Below, one piece after another: positions 8,301 through 63,585 of a DNA stretch of 64,000 bases. The notes below the pieces were generated by a model. That model had not been told where the DNA came from. It searched no databases and saw nothing but the letters and a program-made list of their open reading frames with translations. The stretch's first letter is position 1. Every line of letters begins with the position of its first letter. Source of the DNA: a virus (lineage: Duplodnaviria > Caudoviricetes); the IMG/VR virus record IMGVR_UViG_3300047539_000055, one strand, 5' to 3'. A program made the position numbers and the translations under genes.

Positions 8301-9224
8301 ATGAAAGTAACGCCTAAAGTATTAAACGCTGCTATTGGAGCCGCTTGGATAGTACATAATACCGCAAACTCAAATTTTTGGGAGTATATAAGTGCTGCGA
8401 TTAATTCTATACCAGAACCAGGTGTATTTGTTGAAGAGAAAAAGGAATCAAAAATGGAATGGATAAATGTAAAAGTTAGAATGCCAAAACTTAATGACTT
8501 GGTTCTATTTTGGGTTAACGGGGTATCAGTAGAAGGATTTCCTGGATTAACAGATGGTTATGCCGAAACAGGATCATATCGTAATTATTTGACACTTGTA
8601 CCAGATTGTGGAGATTTTAGATCATATAGTGGTGATAGGATTGAATCAGAATGGTGGATGCCATTCCCAGCACCTCCAGGTGTATTTGTTGAAGAGAAAA
8701 AATGTAAAAATCATCGTTGGTGCTACAAGGAAGGATATGAAGGTGTTCAATGTGATTGGTGTGGAGAACATAAGGAGGCAACCATGGCAACCGTGGAAAC
8801 AGTTATAGAAATGAGTGGTGTTGATTTGATTGCTGCTGAAAGAAGGCGTCAAGTAGTTTTTGAAGGTTGGACTCCAGAACACGATGATGATCATGAGTAT
8901 GGAGAACTTGCAATTGAAGCGGCTTGTCTTGCAGTTGATGGTACTGATGCAATCATTGATCATCCTGAATGGGATGAAAACCAACAAACTGATCCTTGGG
9001 GATTGGTTGAGAAGCATAGAAATAATCGAGTGCGTCAACTTGTAATAGCTGGTGCTTTGCTTGCGGCTGAAATTGATCGTCAACAACGTCTCGCGGTCAA
9101 GAAGAATCCTACGCGGGAGGAAGAAATAGCACAAATACTAGTAAACACATTGGATTCTACTAACTTGCCAGCGTATTATATGCCTGTGGCTGAAAAGATC
9201 GTTGCTCTATGGAAGAAAAAATGA
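8301..9224 (+). CDS. Mosaic hypothetical protein (DUF551-like module plus AERRRQ/GWTPEHDD module)
   Basis: Internal SD+ATG at 8454 and 8784; 26-bp direct repeat. Confidence 0.6.
   Translation: MKVTPKVLNAAIGAAWIVHNTANSNFWEYISAAINSIPEPGVFVEEKKESKMEWINVKVRMPKLNDLVLFWVNGVSVEGFPGLTDGYAETGSYRNYLTLVPDCGDFRSYSGDRIESEWWMPFPAPPGVFVEEKKCKNHRWCYKEGYEGVQCDWCGEHKEATMATVETVIEMSGVDLIAAERRRQVVFEGWTPEHDDDHEYGELAIEAACLAVDGTDAIIDHPEWDENQQTDPWGLVEKHRNNRVRQLVIAGALLAAEIDRQQRLAVKKNPTREEEIAQILVNTLDSTNLPAYYMPVAEKIVALWKKK
8418..8701 (+). repeat. 26-bp perfect direct repeat CCAGGTGTATTTGTTGAAGAGAAAAA (8418-8443, 8676-8701)
   Basis: Read directly from the sequence. Confidence 0.9.
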
Positions 9225-9601: not shown

Positions 9602-9613
9602 GTGAGAAATGGG

Positions 9614-9692
9614 ATAAATAGATATGTAGTTCGCGGGAGGAAAGCCCCAACTACCCTAATACTATTGAGGAGTATCAGCTATGTCTATTTAT
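9614..9692 (+). ncRNA. Structured leader element (copy A): late promoter, stem-loops, SD and first codons of endonuclease
   Basis: ATAAATA..GTAGTTCGCGG..CCCAACTACCCTA..GAGG..CAGC.ATG..TATTTAT; homologous copy at 55136-55213 with a compensatory change. Confidence 0.6.
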
Positions 9693-10259
9693 AATCCAGA
9701 GAAAAAGAAAGAAAGTGATAAAATTTATCGCGAGAAGAACCGTGAGAAAATTAAAGAGCGAGGTAAGAAATTTTACGAAGAGCATAAAACACAGATAAAA
9801 GAACGAAATAAAAAATATTATGAGGCGCATAGAGAGCAGAAATTAGCGTATAGTAAAAAATGGCATACAGAAAATAAAGAAAGTCAGCGGTTGGTAAGCA
9901 AGGAATGGAGACTACTGAACCAAGAAAAAATTAAAGCGGCGGGAGAAAAATATCGAGAAGAACATAAAACTGAGATTAATCGCAAAAATAAAGAAGACCG
10001 CCGCGCCCGTCTCAGAGAGTATAGATATAAAAGAAAATATGATACTACAACAGATAACTATGATCAATTATATGCAGATCAAGGCGGAAAATGTAAAATA
10101 TGCTCAACTTTTTATTCATTGCTGAACATTGATCATAATCATAAGACGGGAAAAATTCGAGGATTGCTATGCAGAAAATGTAATATGGGAATTGGATTAT
10201 TACAAGATAGTGCGATTATTTTGAAAAACGCGCTGAAATATGTTGAAAACGAGGGTTAA
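9681..10259 (+). CDS. Endonuclease VII-family (HNH) free-standing homing endonuclease
   Basis: QGGKCKIC...IDHNH.TGKIRGLLC..CN.GIG; K/E-rich N-terminal repeats. Confidence 0.85.
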   Translation: MSIYNPEKKKESDKIYREKNREKIKERGKKFYEEHKTQIKERNKKYYEAHREQKLAYSKKWHTENKESQRLVSKEWRLLNQEKIKAAGEKYREEHKTEINRKNKEDRRARLREYRYKRKYDTTTDNYDQLYADQGGKCKICSTFYSLLNIDHNHKTGKIRGLLCRKCNMGIGLLQDSAIILKNALKYVENEG

Positions 10260-10261
10260 AT

Positions 10262-11041
10262 ATGGAGGAAATTTTAGATGGGATGGTATCTATCAAAGGC
10301 AATGCAACTGGACTTAGAGAACTTGCGCTTTTCGCAGGTTGCGGAGGGGGTATTCTCGGAGGAAAACTCCTTGGCTGGAGAACAGTATGCGCCGTTGAAA
10401 TCAACCAATTCTGCATTGACAGACTTATGCAAAGACAAGATGAAGGATTTTTGCCACCCTTTCCTATCTTCGACAATGTATGTACCTTCGACGGAATTCC
10501 TTGGAATGGAAAGGTGGATGTCATGTCTGGGGGATTCCCCTGCCAAGATATTAGCGCAGCAAATAATAAAGCCGAAGGAATCTCAGGAAAACGAAGTGGA
10601 CTCTGGAGTGAATTCGCTCGGATCATTGATGAAGTACGACCAAAGTTCGCATTCGTGGAAAACTCCCCCCTCCTTGTTTTACGAGGACTGCATAGAGTCC
10701 TCGGTGACCTTGCCGAAATCGGGTACGATGCGGAATGGACTTGTTTATCAGCAAAAGCAATCGGTGCCTCTCACAAAAGAGAAAGAATCTGGATTCTCGC
10801 ATCCAACACCCGCCGCGACGGATTGGAAAGGGGCTTCAGTAAACAGGACTTACTCGGACCTACCACAATGGCTACACAAGGTTTGTTCCCCCATAACCAA
10901 AACGAGTTATCCACACCCAGAATTGTTGGAACAAGTAATGGGGTGGCCGATAGGATGGACCGCACGAGAGCCATTGGAAATGGACAAGTACCGCTTGTGG
11001 CTGCGACAGCATGGAATATTCTCATAAATAGGGGAAAATGA
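10262..11041 (+). CDS. DNA cytosine-5 methyltransferase, alpha-like chain (motifs I, IV, VI, VIII, X)
   Basis: LFAGCGGG, GGFPCQDIS, FVENS, HKRERIW, AIGNGQVP; no obvious motif IX. Confidence 0.88.
   Translation: MEEILDGMVSIKGNATGLRELALFAGCGGGILGGKLLGWRTVCAVEINQFCIDRLMQRQDEGFLPPFPIFDNVCTFDGIPWNGKVDVMSGGFPCQDISAANNKAEGISGKRSGLWSEFARIIDEVRPKFAFVENSPLLVLRGLHRVLGDLAEIGYDAEWTCLSAKAIGASHKRERIWILASNTRRDGLERGFSKQDLLGPTTMATQGLFPHNQNELSTPRIVGTSNGVADRMDRTRAIGNGQVPLVAATAWNILINRGK
10278..11027 (+). CDS. Nested +1-frame ORF, probable beta chain of the C5 MTase (TRD/motif IX)
   Basis: 249 aa stop-free; GGAGG 9 nt upstream of ATG; PTPAATDWKG and PELLEQVMGWPIGWT. Confidence 0.65.
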   Translation: MGWYLSKAMQLDLENLRFSQVAEGVFSEENSLAGEQYAPLKSTNSALTDLCKDKMKDFCHPFLSSTMYVPSTEFLGMERWMSCLGDSPAKILAQQIIKPKESQENEVDSGVNSLGSLMKYDQSSHSWKTPPSLFYEDCIESSVTLPKSGTMRNGLVYQQKQSVPLTKEKESGFSHPTPAATDWKGASVNRTYSDLPQWLHKVCSPITKTSYPHPELLEQVMGWPIGWTAREPLEMDKYRLWLRQHGIFS

Positions 11042-51652: not shown

Positions 51653-54238
51653 TTGAACGCAACTATTGCCATAAATATTCGTCCTCATCAAGTCACAACT
51701 TTTCAAGATTCATTCAGCCAAGAAGTATGGAGAACAACTTATAAGGATCACAAAGATAACGATATCAACGATACTTTTTGGCGAGTAGCAACTGCCATAG
51801 CGAGTGTTGAAATTACAGAAGACCTTCGACAAAAGTGGGCAAACAATTTTTATGAAATGATGACTTCATTTCGTGTTGTTCCCGGCGGTAGAATCGTTGC
51901 CAATGCCGGAACAGATTTCAAAGGGACTTCCCTAATCAATTGTTTTGTTTCACCATCACCGATACACGATGCAGATAGCATGGTTGGAATTCTTGAAACT
52001 CTAAGAGCGCAAACGTTAACATTGAAAAGTGAAGGTGGCTGGGGACATAATTTTTCAGTTCTTAGACCGCGAGGAGCATTCATTAATGGTATTGGTGTTG
52101 AGACTCCTGGTTCAGTTAAATTCATGGAGTTATTTGATAAGAGTAGTGAAATTATTACGGCCGGTTCTGGTACAAAAAGCCTGAACAAAAAAGCAAAGGG
52201 TAAGATTCGTAAGGGCGCAATGATGGGTGTTTTGGACGTATGGCACCCGGATATTATTGAATTCATCACAGCAAAGCAAACGAGTAATCGGCTTCAAAAA
52301 TTCAATGTCAGTGTAAATTGCGTTGATGAATTTATGGAGCAAGTTCTGAAAGTTTATGATCTGAAGAAAAAAGGATTACAAAGTGAAGCAGAGCAGATTA
52401 CTTGGGATTTGATCTTTCCAGAACCCACACACGCCAAATATAAAAAAGAATGGAAGGGTGATATTCGGGATTGGAAAGCAAAAGGCTATCCGATTCATAT
52501 TTACAAAACTGTCAAAGTTGAGTGGCTTTGGAATCTGATTACGCAAAGCACATATAATCGTAACGAGCCTGGTGTTCTATTTTTAGATCGGGCGAACAAG
52601 TTCAATCAACTCAATTACGCCGAAAAAATTGTATCCACAAACCCTTGTGGTGAACAACAATTATCTCATGCAAATGTTTGTTGTCTTGCAACTCTCAATC
52701 TCACACAATTTATCAATGTTGACCATACTGGTTTTGATCATGTAAAGATTAGAAAGTATACGAAGTATATGGTGAGATTTCTTGATAATGTTGATACCTA
52801 CAGTGATGCTCCGCTTCCAGAATATGTTGAATCAATGCGTAAGAAGAGACGCATTGGTTGTGGACTTATGGGATGGGGAAGCGCGTTGTATATGCTGAAG
52901 GTTCGCTTTGGTTCTAAGGAAGCCGCCGAACTTCGCAATGAATTATTGAAGACTTTTACACACGCTGGAGTTGAAGCATCATTGGATTTGGCCGACGAAA
53001 AGGGCATGTTTGAATTGTGTGAGCCTGAGAAGCATGTATTGAGTCCTTATTGGGACAATATTGATTTGCCAATAGCCCTTCGTAACAGAATGCGTAAAAA
53101 TGGTATTCGTAACAGTTCATTATTTTCAATGCAACCCAATGGTAATTCAAGTATCTTTGCCAACATATTAACTGGTGGTATTGAACCTGTATTCCTGCAA
53201 GATTATACACGCACTGTTATTGTTGGGGAGATGCCAGAACACATCAAGGATGTAACGCCACTTTGGTATCAAGGTGAATGGCATGAAACATCTATGTTTA
53301 AGTTTGTTCAAGAAGGTGATGAACAAATTCTTCGTGGTGTGGATAAGAATGGTACGGTTTATAAGATTGACAAAAATCGTGGACTTACCAAGGAAGTAAC
53401 TTGCCAGGATTATGGTGTTCGTTATCTAATCAATCTTGGAGAGTGGAATCCAAAAGCAAAGTGGGCTGTAACAACTGATGATATATCTGTGGCAGATCAT
53501 ATTTCTGATTTGAAAGGATTTGCCAAGGCAGTTGATAGTGCTTGTTCAAAGACTGTCAACCTGCCAAACGATTATAATTTTGAAGATTTTCAAAACATCT
53601 ATTTGGATGCTTACAAGACCGGCTTTATCAAAGGATTGACCACTTTTAGAGCTGGAACAATGACTACGGTTTTGTCAGCGACAGATCAAAAAACGGATTT
53701 GGATGAAGAAATTATTTTGGCAGATGTAAAAGTTCCAGATAATGGAATTGCGGAAGTAAAGGTATTACGTGATCATGAAGGTGGAAGTAGTCGTAAATGG
53801 TATGTAACAGTTATGTTGAACGAAAATAAAGCACCAATTGCATTATTTGTGCAAACGAATGCTATGGAAAAAACAGTTACAACAAATGATGCAATTGATA
53901 GGCTTTTAACTCTTGCTCATAGGAAAGGCATTCCTGAAAAATTTGTGACGGGGGTTGAACATAAGTTTATTGGAGATAATAATAGTACTAAAATTGCAAG
54001 AGCAATTGGCTTGTTATTACGTCATGGAGTTCGTATTAAAAATATAGTTGCAGAAATTGATAAAATAGAAGGAATAACTTTTTCAAGCTTTCTTTTTCAT
54101 ATAAAGAAATTGCTTTCGAGTTATGTTAAGGACGGAGAAAAACTGGTTGGTGTCAAATGCATTGAATGTGATGGTCAATTGGTTTATGAATCTGGTTGTC
54201 AAAAATGCATAAATTGTGGTAACAGTAAATGTGGATAA
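51653..54238 (+). CDS. nrdJ: Ribonucleotide reductase, class II (B12-dependent, NrdJ-like)
   Basis: PGGR, NCFV, FNVSV, EPGVLF, TNPCGEQ, SKTVNLP, C-terminal Zn ribbon ESGC..C..CG.SKC; TTG start with GAGG. Confidence 0.85.
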   Translation: MNATIAINIRPHQVTTFQDSFSQEVWRTTYKDHKDNDINDTFWRVATAIASVEITEDLRQKWANNFYEMMTSFRVVPGGRIVANAGTDFKGTSLINCFVSPSPIHDADSMVGILETLRAQTLTLKSEGGWGHNFSVLRPRGAFINGIGVETPGSVKFMELFDKSSEIITAGSGTKSLNKKAKGKIRKGAMMGVLDVWHPDIIEFITAKQTSNRLQKFNVSVNCVDEFMEQVLKVYDLKKKGLQSEAEQITWDLIFPEPTHAKYKKEWKGDIRDWKAKGYPIHIYKTVKVEWLWNLITQSTYNRNEPGVLFLDRANKFNQLNYAEKIVSTNPCGEQQLSHANVCCLATLNLTQFINVDHTGFDHVKIRKYTKYMVRFLDNVDTYSDAPLPEYVESMRKKRRIGCGLMGWGSALYMLKVRFGSKEAAELRNELLKTFTHAGVEASLDLADEKGMFELCEPEKHVLSPYWDNIDLPIALRNRMRKNGIRNSSLFSMQPNGNSSIFANILTGGIEPVFLQDYTRTVIVGEMPEHIKDVTPLWYQGEWHETSMFKFVQEGDEQILRGVDKNGTVYKIDKNRGLTKEVTCQDYGVRYLINLGEWNPKAKWAVTTDDISVADHISDLKGFAKAVDSACSKTVNLPNDYNFEDFQNIYLDAYKTGFIKGLTTFRAGTMTTVLSATDQKTDLDEEIILADVKVPDNGIAEVKVLRDHEGGSSRKWYVTVMLNENKAPIALFVQTNAMEKTVTTNDAIDRLLTLAHRKGIPEKFVTGVEHKFIGDNNSTKIARAIGLLLRHGVRIKNIVAEIDKIEGITFSSFLFHIKKLLSSYVKDGEKLVGVKCIECDGQLVYESGCQKCINCGNSKCG

Positions 54239-54250
54239 AAAGAGTCTTAC

Positions 54251-55147
54251 TTATGGATTTATTCTTTTTCTTTTAGGATTTTTGATGAATCCTCTGACGA
54301 ATCCAATGCTTTCATAATATGGCAATTCATTTCTAACAATTTTTTTCTTTTCTCGTGTAATTAAATTGAAAATTCCGATTCTACCCTTATTTGGAATTTT
54401 AGATGTTTCGATGCGATTCCAATCTTTTGAACGTCTTCCACGTAAATAACCTCGTTGAAGATAATCATTAAGTTCAGTGGGTAAAATTCTTTTTTCTAAA
54501 TTTAGTTTTCTATGGAATACTGTTATGGTTTGTGAAATTGTAATAGACCTTTTTAAATTTGCTTCATTTGTCTGTTGTTTTGTACCTTTGCTTAGTACAT
54601 ATCCCATTGCCAAAAATTTACTGAAATTATTCGGATGAATACGGCGTTCTTGTAAAGTTGTTGGATTAATCAAATATACATATTCATGTTGACGAATTGC
54701 TTGTGCTAACTTGCTGGCTTCTGTTCTTTTTAAACCAAACGCAGGATTATTTTTACCTATATTGGCTTCATAAGCACACAGTTTTACATATTCATATTGT
54801 TTAGATCGTAAAATCCTAATAGGAGTTCTTTTAGATTTTGCAAAACATTGAATTGCCCATCTACACTGTTTATAAAATATTGATCCTTTTGAAAACATTT
54901 TGGTTAATAATTTATGGCATATAAAATGTTCTCTTCCTGTTAGATATACATAATTTAATAAATCTTTTTCACCACCCAAGGCAAATGATTTTGGAAGAAT
55001 ATGATGCTTTTCAGTATATCCACAAATCAGATTTGCGTCCTTTTTATTTGTAGCGCGGATTTTCGCTCTAGCACAAATGGCTAGATATGTATTTGTATAT
55101 TTTGGTTTGGGATTCAATGATAAAAGTGTGGTAATATAAATATTCAT
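54251..55147 (-). CDS. Free-standing HNH homing endonuclease (MobE-like)
   Basis: YTEKHHILPKS..GG....N.V.LT.REHFICH.LL; repeated DNA-binding modules; next to nrdJ. Confidence 0.85.
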   Translation of the reverse strand: MNIYITTLLSLNPKPKYTNTYLAICARAKIRATNKKDANLICGYTEKHHILPKSFALGGEKDLLNYVYLTGREHFICHKLLTKMFSKGSIFYKQCRWAIQCFAKSKRTPIRILRSKQYEYVKLCAYEANIGKNNPAFGLKRTEASKLAQAIRQHEYVYLINPTTLQERRIHPNNFSKFLAMGYVLSKGTKQQTNEANLKRSITISQTITVFHRKLNLEKRILPTELNDYLQRGYLRGRRSKDWNRIETSKIPNKGRIGIFNLITREKKKIVRNELPYYESIGFVRGFIKNPKRKRINP

Positions 55148-55213
55148 ATGCTGTTGCCTCCCTTGGCGATAGGGCAGTTGGGTCTTCATACCGCGAACTG
55201 CAATAGTATTTAT
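55136..55213 (-). ncRNA. Structured leader element (copy B)
   Basis: ATAAATA..GCAGTTCGCGG..CCCAACTGCCCTA..GAGG..CAGC..ATG..TATTTAT on minus strand. Confidence 0.6.
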
Positions 55214-55222
55214 ACAAATAAT

Positions 55223-62687: not shown

Positions 62688-62773
62688 TGGGATGTAGGAA
62701 AACTGGAAACCCCATCTGACTCTGAATCAGACGCCGTTAGGCACTGAAGGTTCAACTCCTTCCATCCCAGCCA
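62688..62773 (+). tRNA. tRNA-Gln(CTG), long variable arm
   Basis: TGGGATG/CATCCCA acceptor, G73, CCA; TCTGA-CTCTGAA-TCAGA; GAAGG-TTCAACT-CCTTC. Confidence 0.9.
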
Positions 62774-62941
62774 AAAATTTTGAGGTAATTATGTCTGATA
62801 AGAAAAAATTAGTTCCTGAGCAATGTCCAAATTGTGGGGCAACTGACAAAAAAGACAAGAAAAATGGGTGCTGTTATTTTTGGCACGATCTTGTAGATAG
62901 TCTCGGTAATGCCATTGGAGAAGCAAAGTTTGGTGAGTAAC

Positions 62942-63100
62942 ATGAAACCAAGCGAAGAATTAATTACGCTCATGGCAGATTTGGAAATATATCTGAACGA
63001 TTTAGATTTGCAAATCGCAGATGTTCAAGAAAAAAGATTAGCCGCTGTAAAAAGTTTAGAAACATTGAAAAATTTAATGCTTGAAGACACAGAAATTTAG
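62942..63100 (+). CDS. Small coiled-coil hypothetical protein
   Basis: ORF between tRNAs. Confidence 0.4.
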   Translation: MKPSEELITLMADLEIYLNDLDLQIADVQEKRLAAVKSLETLKNLMLEDTEI

Positions 63101-63145
63101 TGAGTAAATATGATTCAAATTAGATGGCGTGGTTGGTGAGATTAA

Positions 63146-63220
63146 GCCGTATTCGTATAGTGGCTATTACTCATTCTCGGTAAGAATGAAACGTGGGTTC
63201 AATTCCCTCATGCGGCTCCA
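63146..63220 (+). tRNA. tRNA-Thr(GGT)
   Basis: GCCGTAT/ATGCGGC acceptor, CCA; CATTC-TCGGTAA-GAATG. Confidence 0.85.
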
Positions 63221-63413
63221 TTTTGGAAATTAGATAAATATGAATAAGTTAAAAGAAGAATTTGAAATAGTAACTCGTGAATATGACGCATTACAAGACT
63301 GGCAAAAGAAACTCATAGTAATGGCTGAGTTGAGAAAGCAACAAGTGATCCGTCAAAAATTTGAACGCAATCATTTACGCGATACCAATAATGATTGGAC
63401 TTAGATTTTAAAT

Positions 63414-63496
63414 GCTACGGTGGCACAGCGGCGACTGCACCTGTTTTGTAAGCAGGAATATAAACACCGGGGGTTCGATTCCCTTCCGTAGCTCCA
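63414..63496 (+). tRNA. tRNA-Thr(TGT)
   Basis: GCTACGG/CCGTAGC, CCA; CCTGT-TTTGTAA-GCAGG; extended variable loop. Confidence 0.88.
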
Positions 63497-63502
63497 AATT
63501 TT

Positions 63503-63585
63503 GCTACAGTGGTCCAGCGGCGACGACAGCAGTTCCGTAAACTGCCATACAAACATCGGGGGTTCGATTCCCTTCTGTAGCTCCA
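63503..63585 (+). tRNA. tRNA-Thr(CGT)
   Basis: GCTACAG/CTGTAGC, CCA; GCAGT-TCCGTAA-ACTGC; paralog of previous tRNA. Confidence 0.85.

Follow-up and report, generated by a model that had tools for sequence, protein, structure and literature searches.

Facing late-type promoter boxes and a predicted antisense RNA in a portable cassette that heads homing endonuclease genes of uncultured T4-like phages

Homing endonucleases are selfish genes that have to be expressed enough to spread, without harming the phage that carries them. In the DNA studied here, a 64,000-nt stretch from a virus of the Caudoviricetes (IMG/VR record IMGVR_UViG_3300047539_000055, referred to below as the window), two nuclease genes on opposite strands sit behind nearly the same head of about 80 bp, which raises the question of what this head does and on which strand it acts. 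The original prediction saw in it a conserved, covarying RNA leader, and the two sequences from which that view was drawn were confirmed at both sites, as was the M-x-I-Y start of both proteins. A pattern for the shared core matched the window exactly twice, with no match in 100 shuffles, and a covariance model scored copy A at 81.2 bits and copy B at 75.5 bits (E about 1e-19 and 1e-17). No third copy was found in the window, where the next match of the model, searched with filters off, reached 12.6 bits. The parts of the two copies are the following.

9610-9692, plus strand: cassette copy A
9613..9620, plus strand: rightward T4-type late-promoter box GATAAATA, read directly, 5 nt before P1
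9626..9654, unstranded: hairpin P1/P2, from folding and family covariation, with P1 arms GTAGTT (9626-9631) and AACTAC (9649-9654), an internal loop of CGC (9632-9634) opposite C 9648, and P2 arms GGG (9635-9637) and CCC (9645-9647)
9655..9679, minus strand: CCTA, P3 and CAGC, from the antisense fold; P3 (9659-9675) contains the Shine-Dalgarno (SD) sequence GAGGAG and is followed by CAGC, T and the ATG at 9681, and on the minus strand it is predicted to form an 8-bp helix, CUGAUACU/AGUAUUAG, with an anti-SD loop
9686..9693, minus strand: leftward box TATAAATA (TATTTATA on the gene strand), an exact 8-mer lying in nuclease codons 2-5
9681..10259, plus strand: nuclease gene, 192 aa, endonuclease VII / HNH type by Pfam and PHROG
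55136-55217, minus strand: cassette copy B
55207..55214, minus strand: gene-strand ("rightward") late-promoter box TATAAATA, 5 nt before P1
55174..55201, unstranded: hairpin P1/P2, from folding and family covariation, with P1 arms GCAGTT (55201-55196) and AACTGC (55179-55174), CGC at 55195-55193, and P2 arms GGT (55192-55190) and ACC (55183-55181)
55150..55173, plus strand, antisense to the gene: CCTA, P3 with the SD, and CAGC, from the antisense fold; the predicted antisense P3 is an 8-bp helix, CUGUUGCC/GGCGAUAG, with two G.U pairs
55135..55142, plus strand: leftward box TATAAATA, in nuclease codons 2-5
54251..55147, minus strand: nuclease gene, 298 aa, MobE-like HNH homing endonuclease by PHROG 655 and its HNH motif

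Copy B thus repeats the layout of copy A on the minus strand, running from 55214 down to 55135, and both carry a perfect leftward TATAAATA, which in copy A is separated by 6 nt from the G of GCUG. The endonuclease VII-like and MobE-like assignments proposed for the two proteins agree with the domain searches: nuclease A matches Pfam Endonuclease_7 at 1.7e-21 and PHROG 2914 at 2.6e-31, and nuclease B matches PHROG 655 ('homing endonuclease') at 9.5e-23, with a weak NUMOD3 match and the HNH motif ...EKHHILPKS. The two had also been called unrelated. This goes too far for the window pair, as both belong to the His-Me/HNH superfamily; for the cassette family at large, in which GIY-YIG enzymes also occur, it is right. 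Before its endonuclease VII domain, nuclease A has a stretch rich in Lys and Glu (residues 1 to about 110; 9681-10010, plus strand) in which a K-x-(Y/F)-Y-E-x-H-(K/R) unit recurs. Three nucleotides past the stop codon of nuclease A begins a C-5 cytosine DNA methyltransferase gene (10262-11041, plus strand; Pfam DNA_methylase, 6e-29), and the pair resembles one inserted block. Near copy B, a gene for the ribonucleotide reductase large subunit (51653-54238, plus strand; 861 aa; Pfam Ribonuc_red_lgC, 2.4e-91) ends 13 nt from the stop codon of nuclease gene B, with which it is convergent; genes for reductases are a classic target of homing.

The cassette is not confined to the window. In IMG/VR, 22 loci matched an exact pattern, with identical anatomy throughout, and a covariance model made from 19 distinct copies and run over 206 loci gave 107 hits, 93 of them distinct, at 42-91 bits on uncultured phage contigs. 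Separation was clean, with no scores between E 1.8e-7 and the cut-off of 0.01. Standard pairs fill 91% of the pair cells, against 74% after shuffling, and two-sided changes occupy 253 cells against 63, values that none of 500 shuffles reached; sliding the partner column by one lowers pairing to 33-44%. In P1 and P2, 98.6% and 98.4% of the cells are paired, and two-sided changes occur at 8 of the 10 pairs. The exchange of GTAGTT/AACTAC for GCAGTT/AACTGC, read earlier as compensatory from two copies, recurs at family scale, where 78 copies have U-A at this pair and 8 have C-G.

Over the 93 distinct copies, P1, CGCG, (C/U)CUA and CAGC are near-invariant, and P2 and P3 are free to vary, P2 also in its length, which includes insertions of 9-10 nt. 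The invariance originally ascribed to CGCGG, CCTA and CAGC holds for CUA and CAG (93/93) and nearly so for CGCG. It fails at the base before CUA, which is C or U, and at the last base of CAGC, which is T in two copies. Covariation also links the two end bases of the P2 hexaloop (alignment columns 34 and 43, in the region of window positions 9638/9644), with C.A in 34 copies and U.G in 24; these are isosteric wobble geometries, and the pattern looks alike on either strand.

Copy number per contig is high in places. One 360-kb contig, IMG/VR 3300024331_000007, holds 16 copies (among loci L002, L014, L066 and L081, the L081 copy being the closest relative of copy B), and each of four other large contigs has 3-4. 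Six loci (L215-L220) lie on short contigs binned into metagenome-assembled genomes of Haliscomenobacter, Mucilaginibacter, Polynucleobacter and Terrimicrobiaceae, which are freshwater and taxonomically unrelated. Such contigs are most likely mis-binned phage and hence give no clue to the host.

Behind 88 of the 93 distinct copies lies an ORF of at least 100 aa. Among these 88 genes, PHROG 314 was found in 48 and PHROG 655 in 29, both annotated as 'homing endonuclease', and the remaining PHROG matches are to HNH, GIY-YIG, 'intron-like DNA endonuclease' and endonuclease VII families. By Pfam, 38 have NUMOD3, about 30 match HNH families, 10 match SegE_GIY-YIG or GIY-YIG, and one matches Endonuclease_7. 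The cassette is tied to homing endonucleases of unrelated folds, and nearly all of the genes downstream of it are such enzymes. Across the 93 copies, both the covariation and this association are strong, as the original prediction expected of a genuine element, and its suggestion of a portable cassette common to nucleases from different families, in which the constancy of unpaired bases points beyond simple occlusion, is upheld. At one locus (L180), an intact cassette (8560-8810, minus strand) stands before a GIY-YIG gene that is frameshifted after 13 codons, and a second cassette and its gene, both intact, lie at 10191-10838 on the plus strand; the two flank a single 485-aa gene.

No Rfam family matches the element. 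At gathering thresholds, Rfam 15 returned no relevant family over the whole window, the only hits being four tRNAs, clustered at 62688-63582 on the plus strand. Around copy A, a search at E up to 10 gave two chance-level hits of 12 and 21 bits, and hammerhead, twister, pistol, hatchet and riboswitch families had no Rfam 15 score near the gathering threshold. None of T4, Aeh1, PA5oct (in culture the nearest relative, judged by a clamp loader of 51% identity), Atu_ph07, RsoM2USA, S-PM2 or phiN3 has a match to the covariance model, and for S-PM2 this covers the complete genome at E up to 1; the 16-copy contig, used as the positive control for these genome searches, gave 16 matches. Searches of 50,697 phage records with megablast and blastn, using the element together with its gene, returned nothing meaningful. 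A literature search with the core sequences as words yielded unrelated primers, and the text of a 2023 survey of structured RNAs in viruses contains no discussion of endonuclease leaders. The cassette is a real, widespread and structured element, absent from Rfam, that stands before free-standing homing endonuclease genes of uncultured phages, which are T4-like and for the most part jumbo.

Watson-Crick covariation looks alike on both strands, and the folding strand can be told apart because wobble pairs differ between them. An A.C mismatch on the sense strand is a G.U pair on the antisense strand, so that the helix around the SD is continuous over 8-9 bp in the antisense RNA and covers 3-5 bp in the sense RNA. 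The invariant CUA faces CAG as C-G, U-A and A.C, and this A.C (alignment pair 69-109) is present in 93/93 copies; pair 70-108 is A.C in 6 copies, and at pair 71-107 there are 44 copies with C.A or A.C, 45 with a Watson-Crick pair and one with G.U. Folded from YCUA to CAGC, the sense strand averages -2.4 kcal/mol and 4.6 bp, and the antisense strand -7.0 kcal/mol and 8.3 bp, the antisense fold being the better one in 93/93 copies. With dinucleotide shuffles of the respective strand as background, the sense fold has a z of -0.3 and the antisense fold one of -2.8, a difference that base composition does not explain. The SD-holding hairpin that had been placed on the sense strand is therefore no more stable there than shuffled sequence. 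The predicted antisense RNAs of the window fold at -16.0 (copy A) and -22.0 kcal/mol (copy B), against -11.3 and -15.0 kcal/mol for the predicted sense late leaders, and for copy B the 71-nt antisense RNA has a z of -2.3 and the sense late leader one of -0.65. The distinction resides in P3 extended by CUA/CAG: P1/P2 is about equally stable on either strand, and neither P1/P2 nor P3 taken alone separates the two. One signal runs the other way, since the loop-proximal pair 74-102 is U.G in 14/93 copies, which favours the sense strand.

The boxes at the two ends of the cassette form a matched pair. A rightward box of the NATAAATA/TAAATA type lies 1-13 nt before P1 in 93/93 copies (3-5 nt in 86), so that a predicted late-promoter motif stands directly upstream of the endonuclease gene, as in T-even phages. 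The leftward TATTTAT box, which reads NATAAATA on the opposite strand, is present in 84/93 copies within codons 2-4, most often 5 nt after CAGC (53/93). Its commonest 8-mers are TATAAATA (25), AATAAATA (23) and GATAAATA (18), and those of the rightward box are TATAAATA (36), GATAAATA (28) and AATAAATA (11); the two boxes have a matching spectrum and equal spacing to a G that opens a hairpin. Late promoters have the sequence NATAAATA in T4-like cyanophages and TATAAATA in T4 (PMC2984593). Homologues of the T4 late sigma factor gp55 were detected on 3 of 4 cassette-bearing jumbo contigs, and in the window TATAAATA occurs 12 times against 5.6 expected, with a modest excess of ATAAATA (36 against 26). 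By analogy with T4-like phages, both boxes are candidate late promoters.

Depending on the gene, the leftward box is translated as x-I-Y, I-F-I or Y-L, in three reading frames, which means that the constraint acts on the nucleotides and not on the protein. The M-x-I-Y start of the two window proteins follows from the position of this box inside codons 2-4. Inverted boxes necessarily form a helix, and a pairing role and a promoter role are therefore inseparable by sequence alone. The variants at outer positions (CTAAATA, TATTTAC, TATTTAG and TACTTAT) bear on this, as they occur without compensation in the partner box, which appears to fit two independent promoters better than a selected helix.

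We propose, giving it an even chance, that the element is a portable cassette of about 80 bp in which two facing late promoters lie at the ends and a structured RNA transcribed leftward restrains the nuclease. The two NATAAATA boxes would face each other at a distance of about 70 bp. From the rightward one, the nuclease mRNA would start at the foot of P1/P2, and its SD hairpin would be deliberately weak, owing to two A.C mismatches, leaving the SD accessible. From the leftward box in codons 2-4, an antisense transcript would start at the G of GCUG and consist, in order, of a stable hairpin of 8-9 bp with the anti-SD in its loop, a P1'/P2' hairpin and a U-rich tail. Such an RNA would be fully complementary to the leader, SD and start region of the mRNA, and its pairing with the mRNA, possibly together with collision of the polymerases, would hold nuclease expression down. 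The tail after P1'/P2' has at least five T in 8 nt in 86/93 copies, and being the complement of the rightward box it is no independent evidence of a terminator; a terminator scan found none on the antisense strand at either window copy. At two loci (L160 and L154), a late gene of the tail-sheath-stabiliser type begins 25 nt past P1', too close to have its own promoter, so that a leftward or read-through transcript must pass the hairpin there and termination would be incomplete. The antisense model also gives no account of the near-invariance of P1, CGC/C, CUA and CAGC.

The same anatomy can be read on the sense strand alone, in the style of T4 I-TevI and Aeh1 mobE. The ATAAATA-UAUUUAU helix, whose 5' arm would contain the late promoter, would then form on the longer read-through transcripts alone and block initiation there, late transcripts would start inside that helix and be translated, P1/P2 would serve as a 5'-terminal stabiliser, and P3 would tune access to the SD. 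This leader is unlikely in our judgement, although its mechanism has been demonstrated for I-TevI, I-TevII, I-TevIII, segB and mobE (PMC2988022), and Dassa et al. 2009 interpreted similar metagenomic hairpins along these lines (PMC2677866). The window taken by itself suits it, as each copy is preceded by a co-oriented gene ending 6-13 nt before the box, the unit that T-even read-through calls for, and the closing helix of copy A can be extended to 12 bp, covering the AUG. The family suits it less well. In a coverage-based count of the orientation of the upstream neighbour, 22 of 72 assessable loci have a co-oriented gene and 50 have one on the opposite strand, and yet the leftward box is kept in 44 of the 50 (88%) much as in 19 of the 22 (86%). 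With neighbours mostly on the opposite strand, occlusion of T4-style read-through is not the general purpose of the cassette. The closing helix, which the original prediction took to seal the unit, amounts to 7 A-U pairs in most copies and is possible in about 84/93, and its outer changes CTAAATA, TATTTAC and TACTTAT are left uncompensated; neither these changes nor the retention of the box where no co-oriented gene precedes it bears that view out. P3, moreover, lies downstream of the promoter and would persist in the late mRNA, its stability on the sense strand does not exceed that of shuffled sequence, and the A.C bias is left without an account.

The orientation counts invite a further reading, in which the leftward box restores late transcription to a neighbour that the inserted nuclease gene has cut off, and the hairpins on the antisense strand are the 5' leader of that neighbour, with no regulation of the nuclease. 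Coding regions of T4 seg and mob genes do embed promoters for their neighbours (PMC2988022), the late gene 25 nt beyond P1' in L160 and L154 has no space for one of its own, the intact cassette of L180 persists in front of a frameshifted GIY-YIG gene while facing a neighbour of this kind, and 50 of the 72 upstream neighbours have the orientation that is called for. We nevertheless consider it improbable. At the other 22 loci, both window copies included, leftward transcription would enter the end of a co-oriented gene in the antisense direction, and the box is kept; several opposite-strand neighbours have a TTGACA-17-TATAAT promoter of their own between themselves and the cassette; the 50:22 split is not far from random orientation of insertion; and a conserved, stable hairpin with an anti-SD loop is left unaccounted for. 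What the antisense model leaves aside could itself be the working part, with the invariant core (P1 with the CGC/C loop, CUA and CAGC) acting as a site for a phage or host protein, or as a catalytic or ligand-binding RNA that processes or gates the nuclease transcripts. The core is nearly invariant over 93 copies while P2 and P3 vary freely, and the variable length of P2 favours recognition of a hairpin over a double-stranded DNA operator with fixed spacing. Against this, there is no Rfam ribozyme or riboswitch match even at E up to 10, a mutual-information scan returned the three helices and their register shifts with no pseudoknot, kissing or long-range contact, and no candidate protein was identified; we think the idea has a low probability, and the ribozyme, ligand-binding and nuclease-partner roles raised in the original prediction gained no support. 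A dedicated system for taming selfish nucleases in jumbo phages, an autonomous module open to acquisition by any nuclease gene that would combine a core (GUAGUU-CGC...C-AACUAC with CUA and CAGC), either catalytic or read by a phage protein specific to it, with a cis-antisense RNA, is a long shot as well. Finally, the hairpin could act as DNA, single-stranded or in a cruciform, forming a recombination or insertion boundary that lets nuclease genes be swapped behind a common head. The occurrence of one head before unrelated folds, up to 16 times per genome, and the extension of conservation a few codons into the gene, as expected of a recombination joint, are in keeping with such a boundary. Because a G.T pair adds little to the stability of a hairpin in DNA, the directional A.C/G.U bias is an RNA signature, and the promoter boxes, SD and fixed spacing to the AUG indicate a function in expression, so that we regard a DNA-level joint as highly improbable. 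Several of these readings could hold together.

The proposed pairing of facing late promoters with an antisense RNA has a counterpart in IS10/Tn10, where the RNA-IN and RNA-OUT promoters face each other across a few tens of bases in the 5' part of the transposase gene, and RNA-OUT is a small stem-loop antisense RNA complementary to the ribosome-binding region of the transposase mRNA. Here, too, and as read from sequence, the gene encodes a DNA-cutting mobility enzyme, candidate promoters face each other, an inward-facing antisense box lies inside the 5' end of the gene, and a predicted antisense stem-loop is complementary to the ribosome-binding region of the mRNA. The two systems have no homology in sequence or structure, and unlike those of IS10 the promoters here are of the phage late type. 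Another comparison is with the PeSLs, reportedly set out by Arbiol et al. in 2010 as mobile promoter-plus-stem-loop cassettes of T4-type phages with early, sigma-70-type promoters, which are said to travel with small genes, without being tied to nucleases, and to be able to mediate modular shuffling. The present cassette is likewise a short, repeated promoter-plus-hairpin module that travels with genes, but its boxes, one on each strand, are of the late type, and the genes to which it is tied encode homing endonucleases.

Among T4-like phages, the established controls are those of I-TevI, I-TevII, I-TevIII, segB and Aeh1 mobE, in which a late promoter is combined with a hairpin that sequesters the ribosome-binding site (PMC2988022). 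The cassette shares with them a TATAAATA-type late-promoter box upstream, structure around the ribosome-binding region and a potentially harmful nuclease to be limited. It differs in that their hairpins are gene-specific and act on the sense strand of read-through transcripts, whereas here dozens of genes share a single conserved sequence family, codons 2-4 contain a second, inward box, only the antisense strand folds the SD hairpin stably, most loci are without a co-oriented upstream gene, and T4 and Aeh1 have no copy. Antisense transcription over a homing endonuclease gene has a precedent in cyanophage S-PM2, whose CfrI, an antisense RNA of about 225 nt, overlaps a homing endonuclease gene and psbA (PMC2984593). 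That phage is also T4-like and uses NATAAATA, but CfrI was seen experimentally, whereas the RNA of the cassette is predicted; CfrI is also much longer and bridges two genes, and S-PM2 has no copy of the cassette. Similar in setting are the metagenomic free-standing endonucleases in 'fractured genes' of Dassa et al. 2009, with upstream hairpins containing TATAAATA and two conserved MEME motifs that pair on the stem (PMC2677866). Those loci are likewise uncultured and phage-like, include GIY-YIG and other nucleases, and have a late-promoter element in a hairpin, but were interpreted as sense-strand occlusion of the ribosome-binding site, with neither a covariance model nor an antisense analysis. 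Compared by description, the hairpins of Dassa et al. may belong to this same family. Taken with these precedents, the cassette is a new form of an established type of control, that of homing endonuclease genes by a late promoter and RNA structure, with a probable antisense component.

For free-standing homing endonucleases, control is understood in no more than a handful of T-even genes, and every one of these has a hairpin of its own. A single covariation-supported module that recurs across unrelated folds points instead to a shared, transferable solution. If the leftward transcript is real, the cassette would give homing endonucleases a compact antisense control like that of the IS10 transposase, and the M-x-I-Y starts would be a by-product of the embedded promoter. 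Should it prove to be a dedicated taming system, it would add a layer of control that has not been described for homing endonucleases. The cassette is a ready candidate for a new family of RNAs and, in phage metagenomes, offers a practical marker by which homing endonuclease genes can be found.
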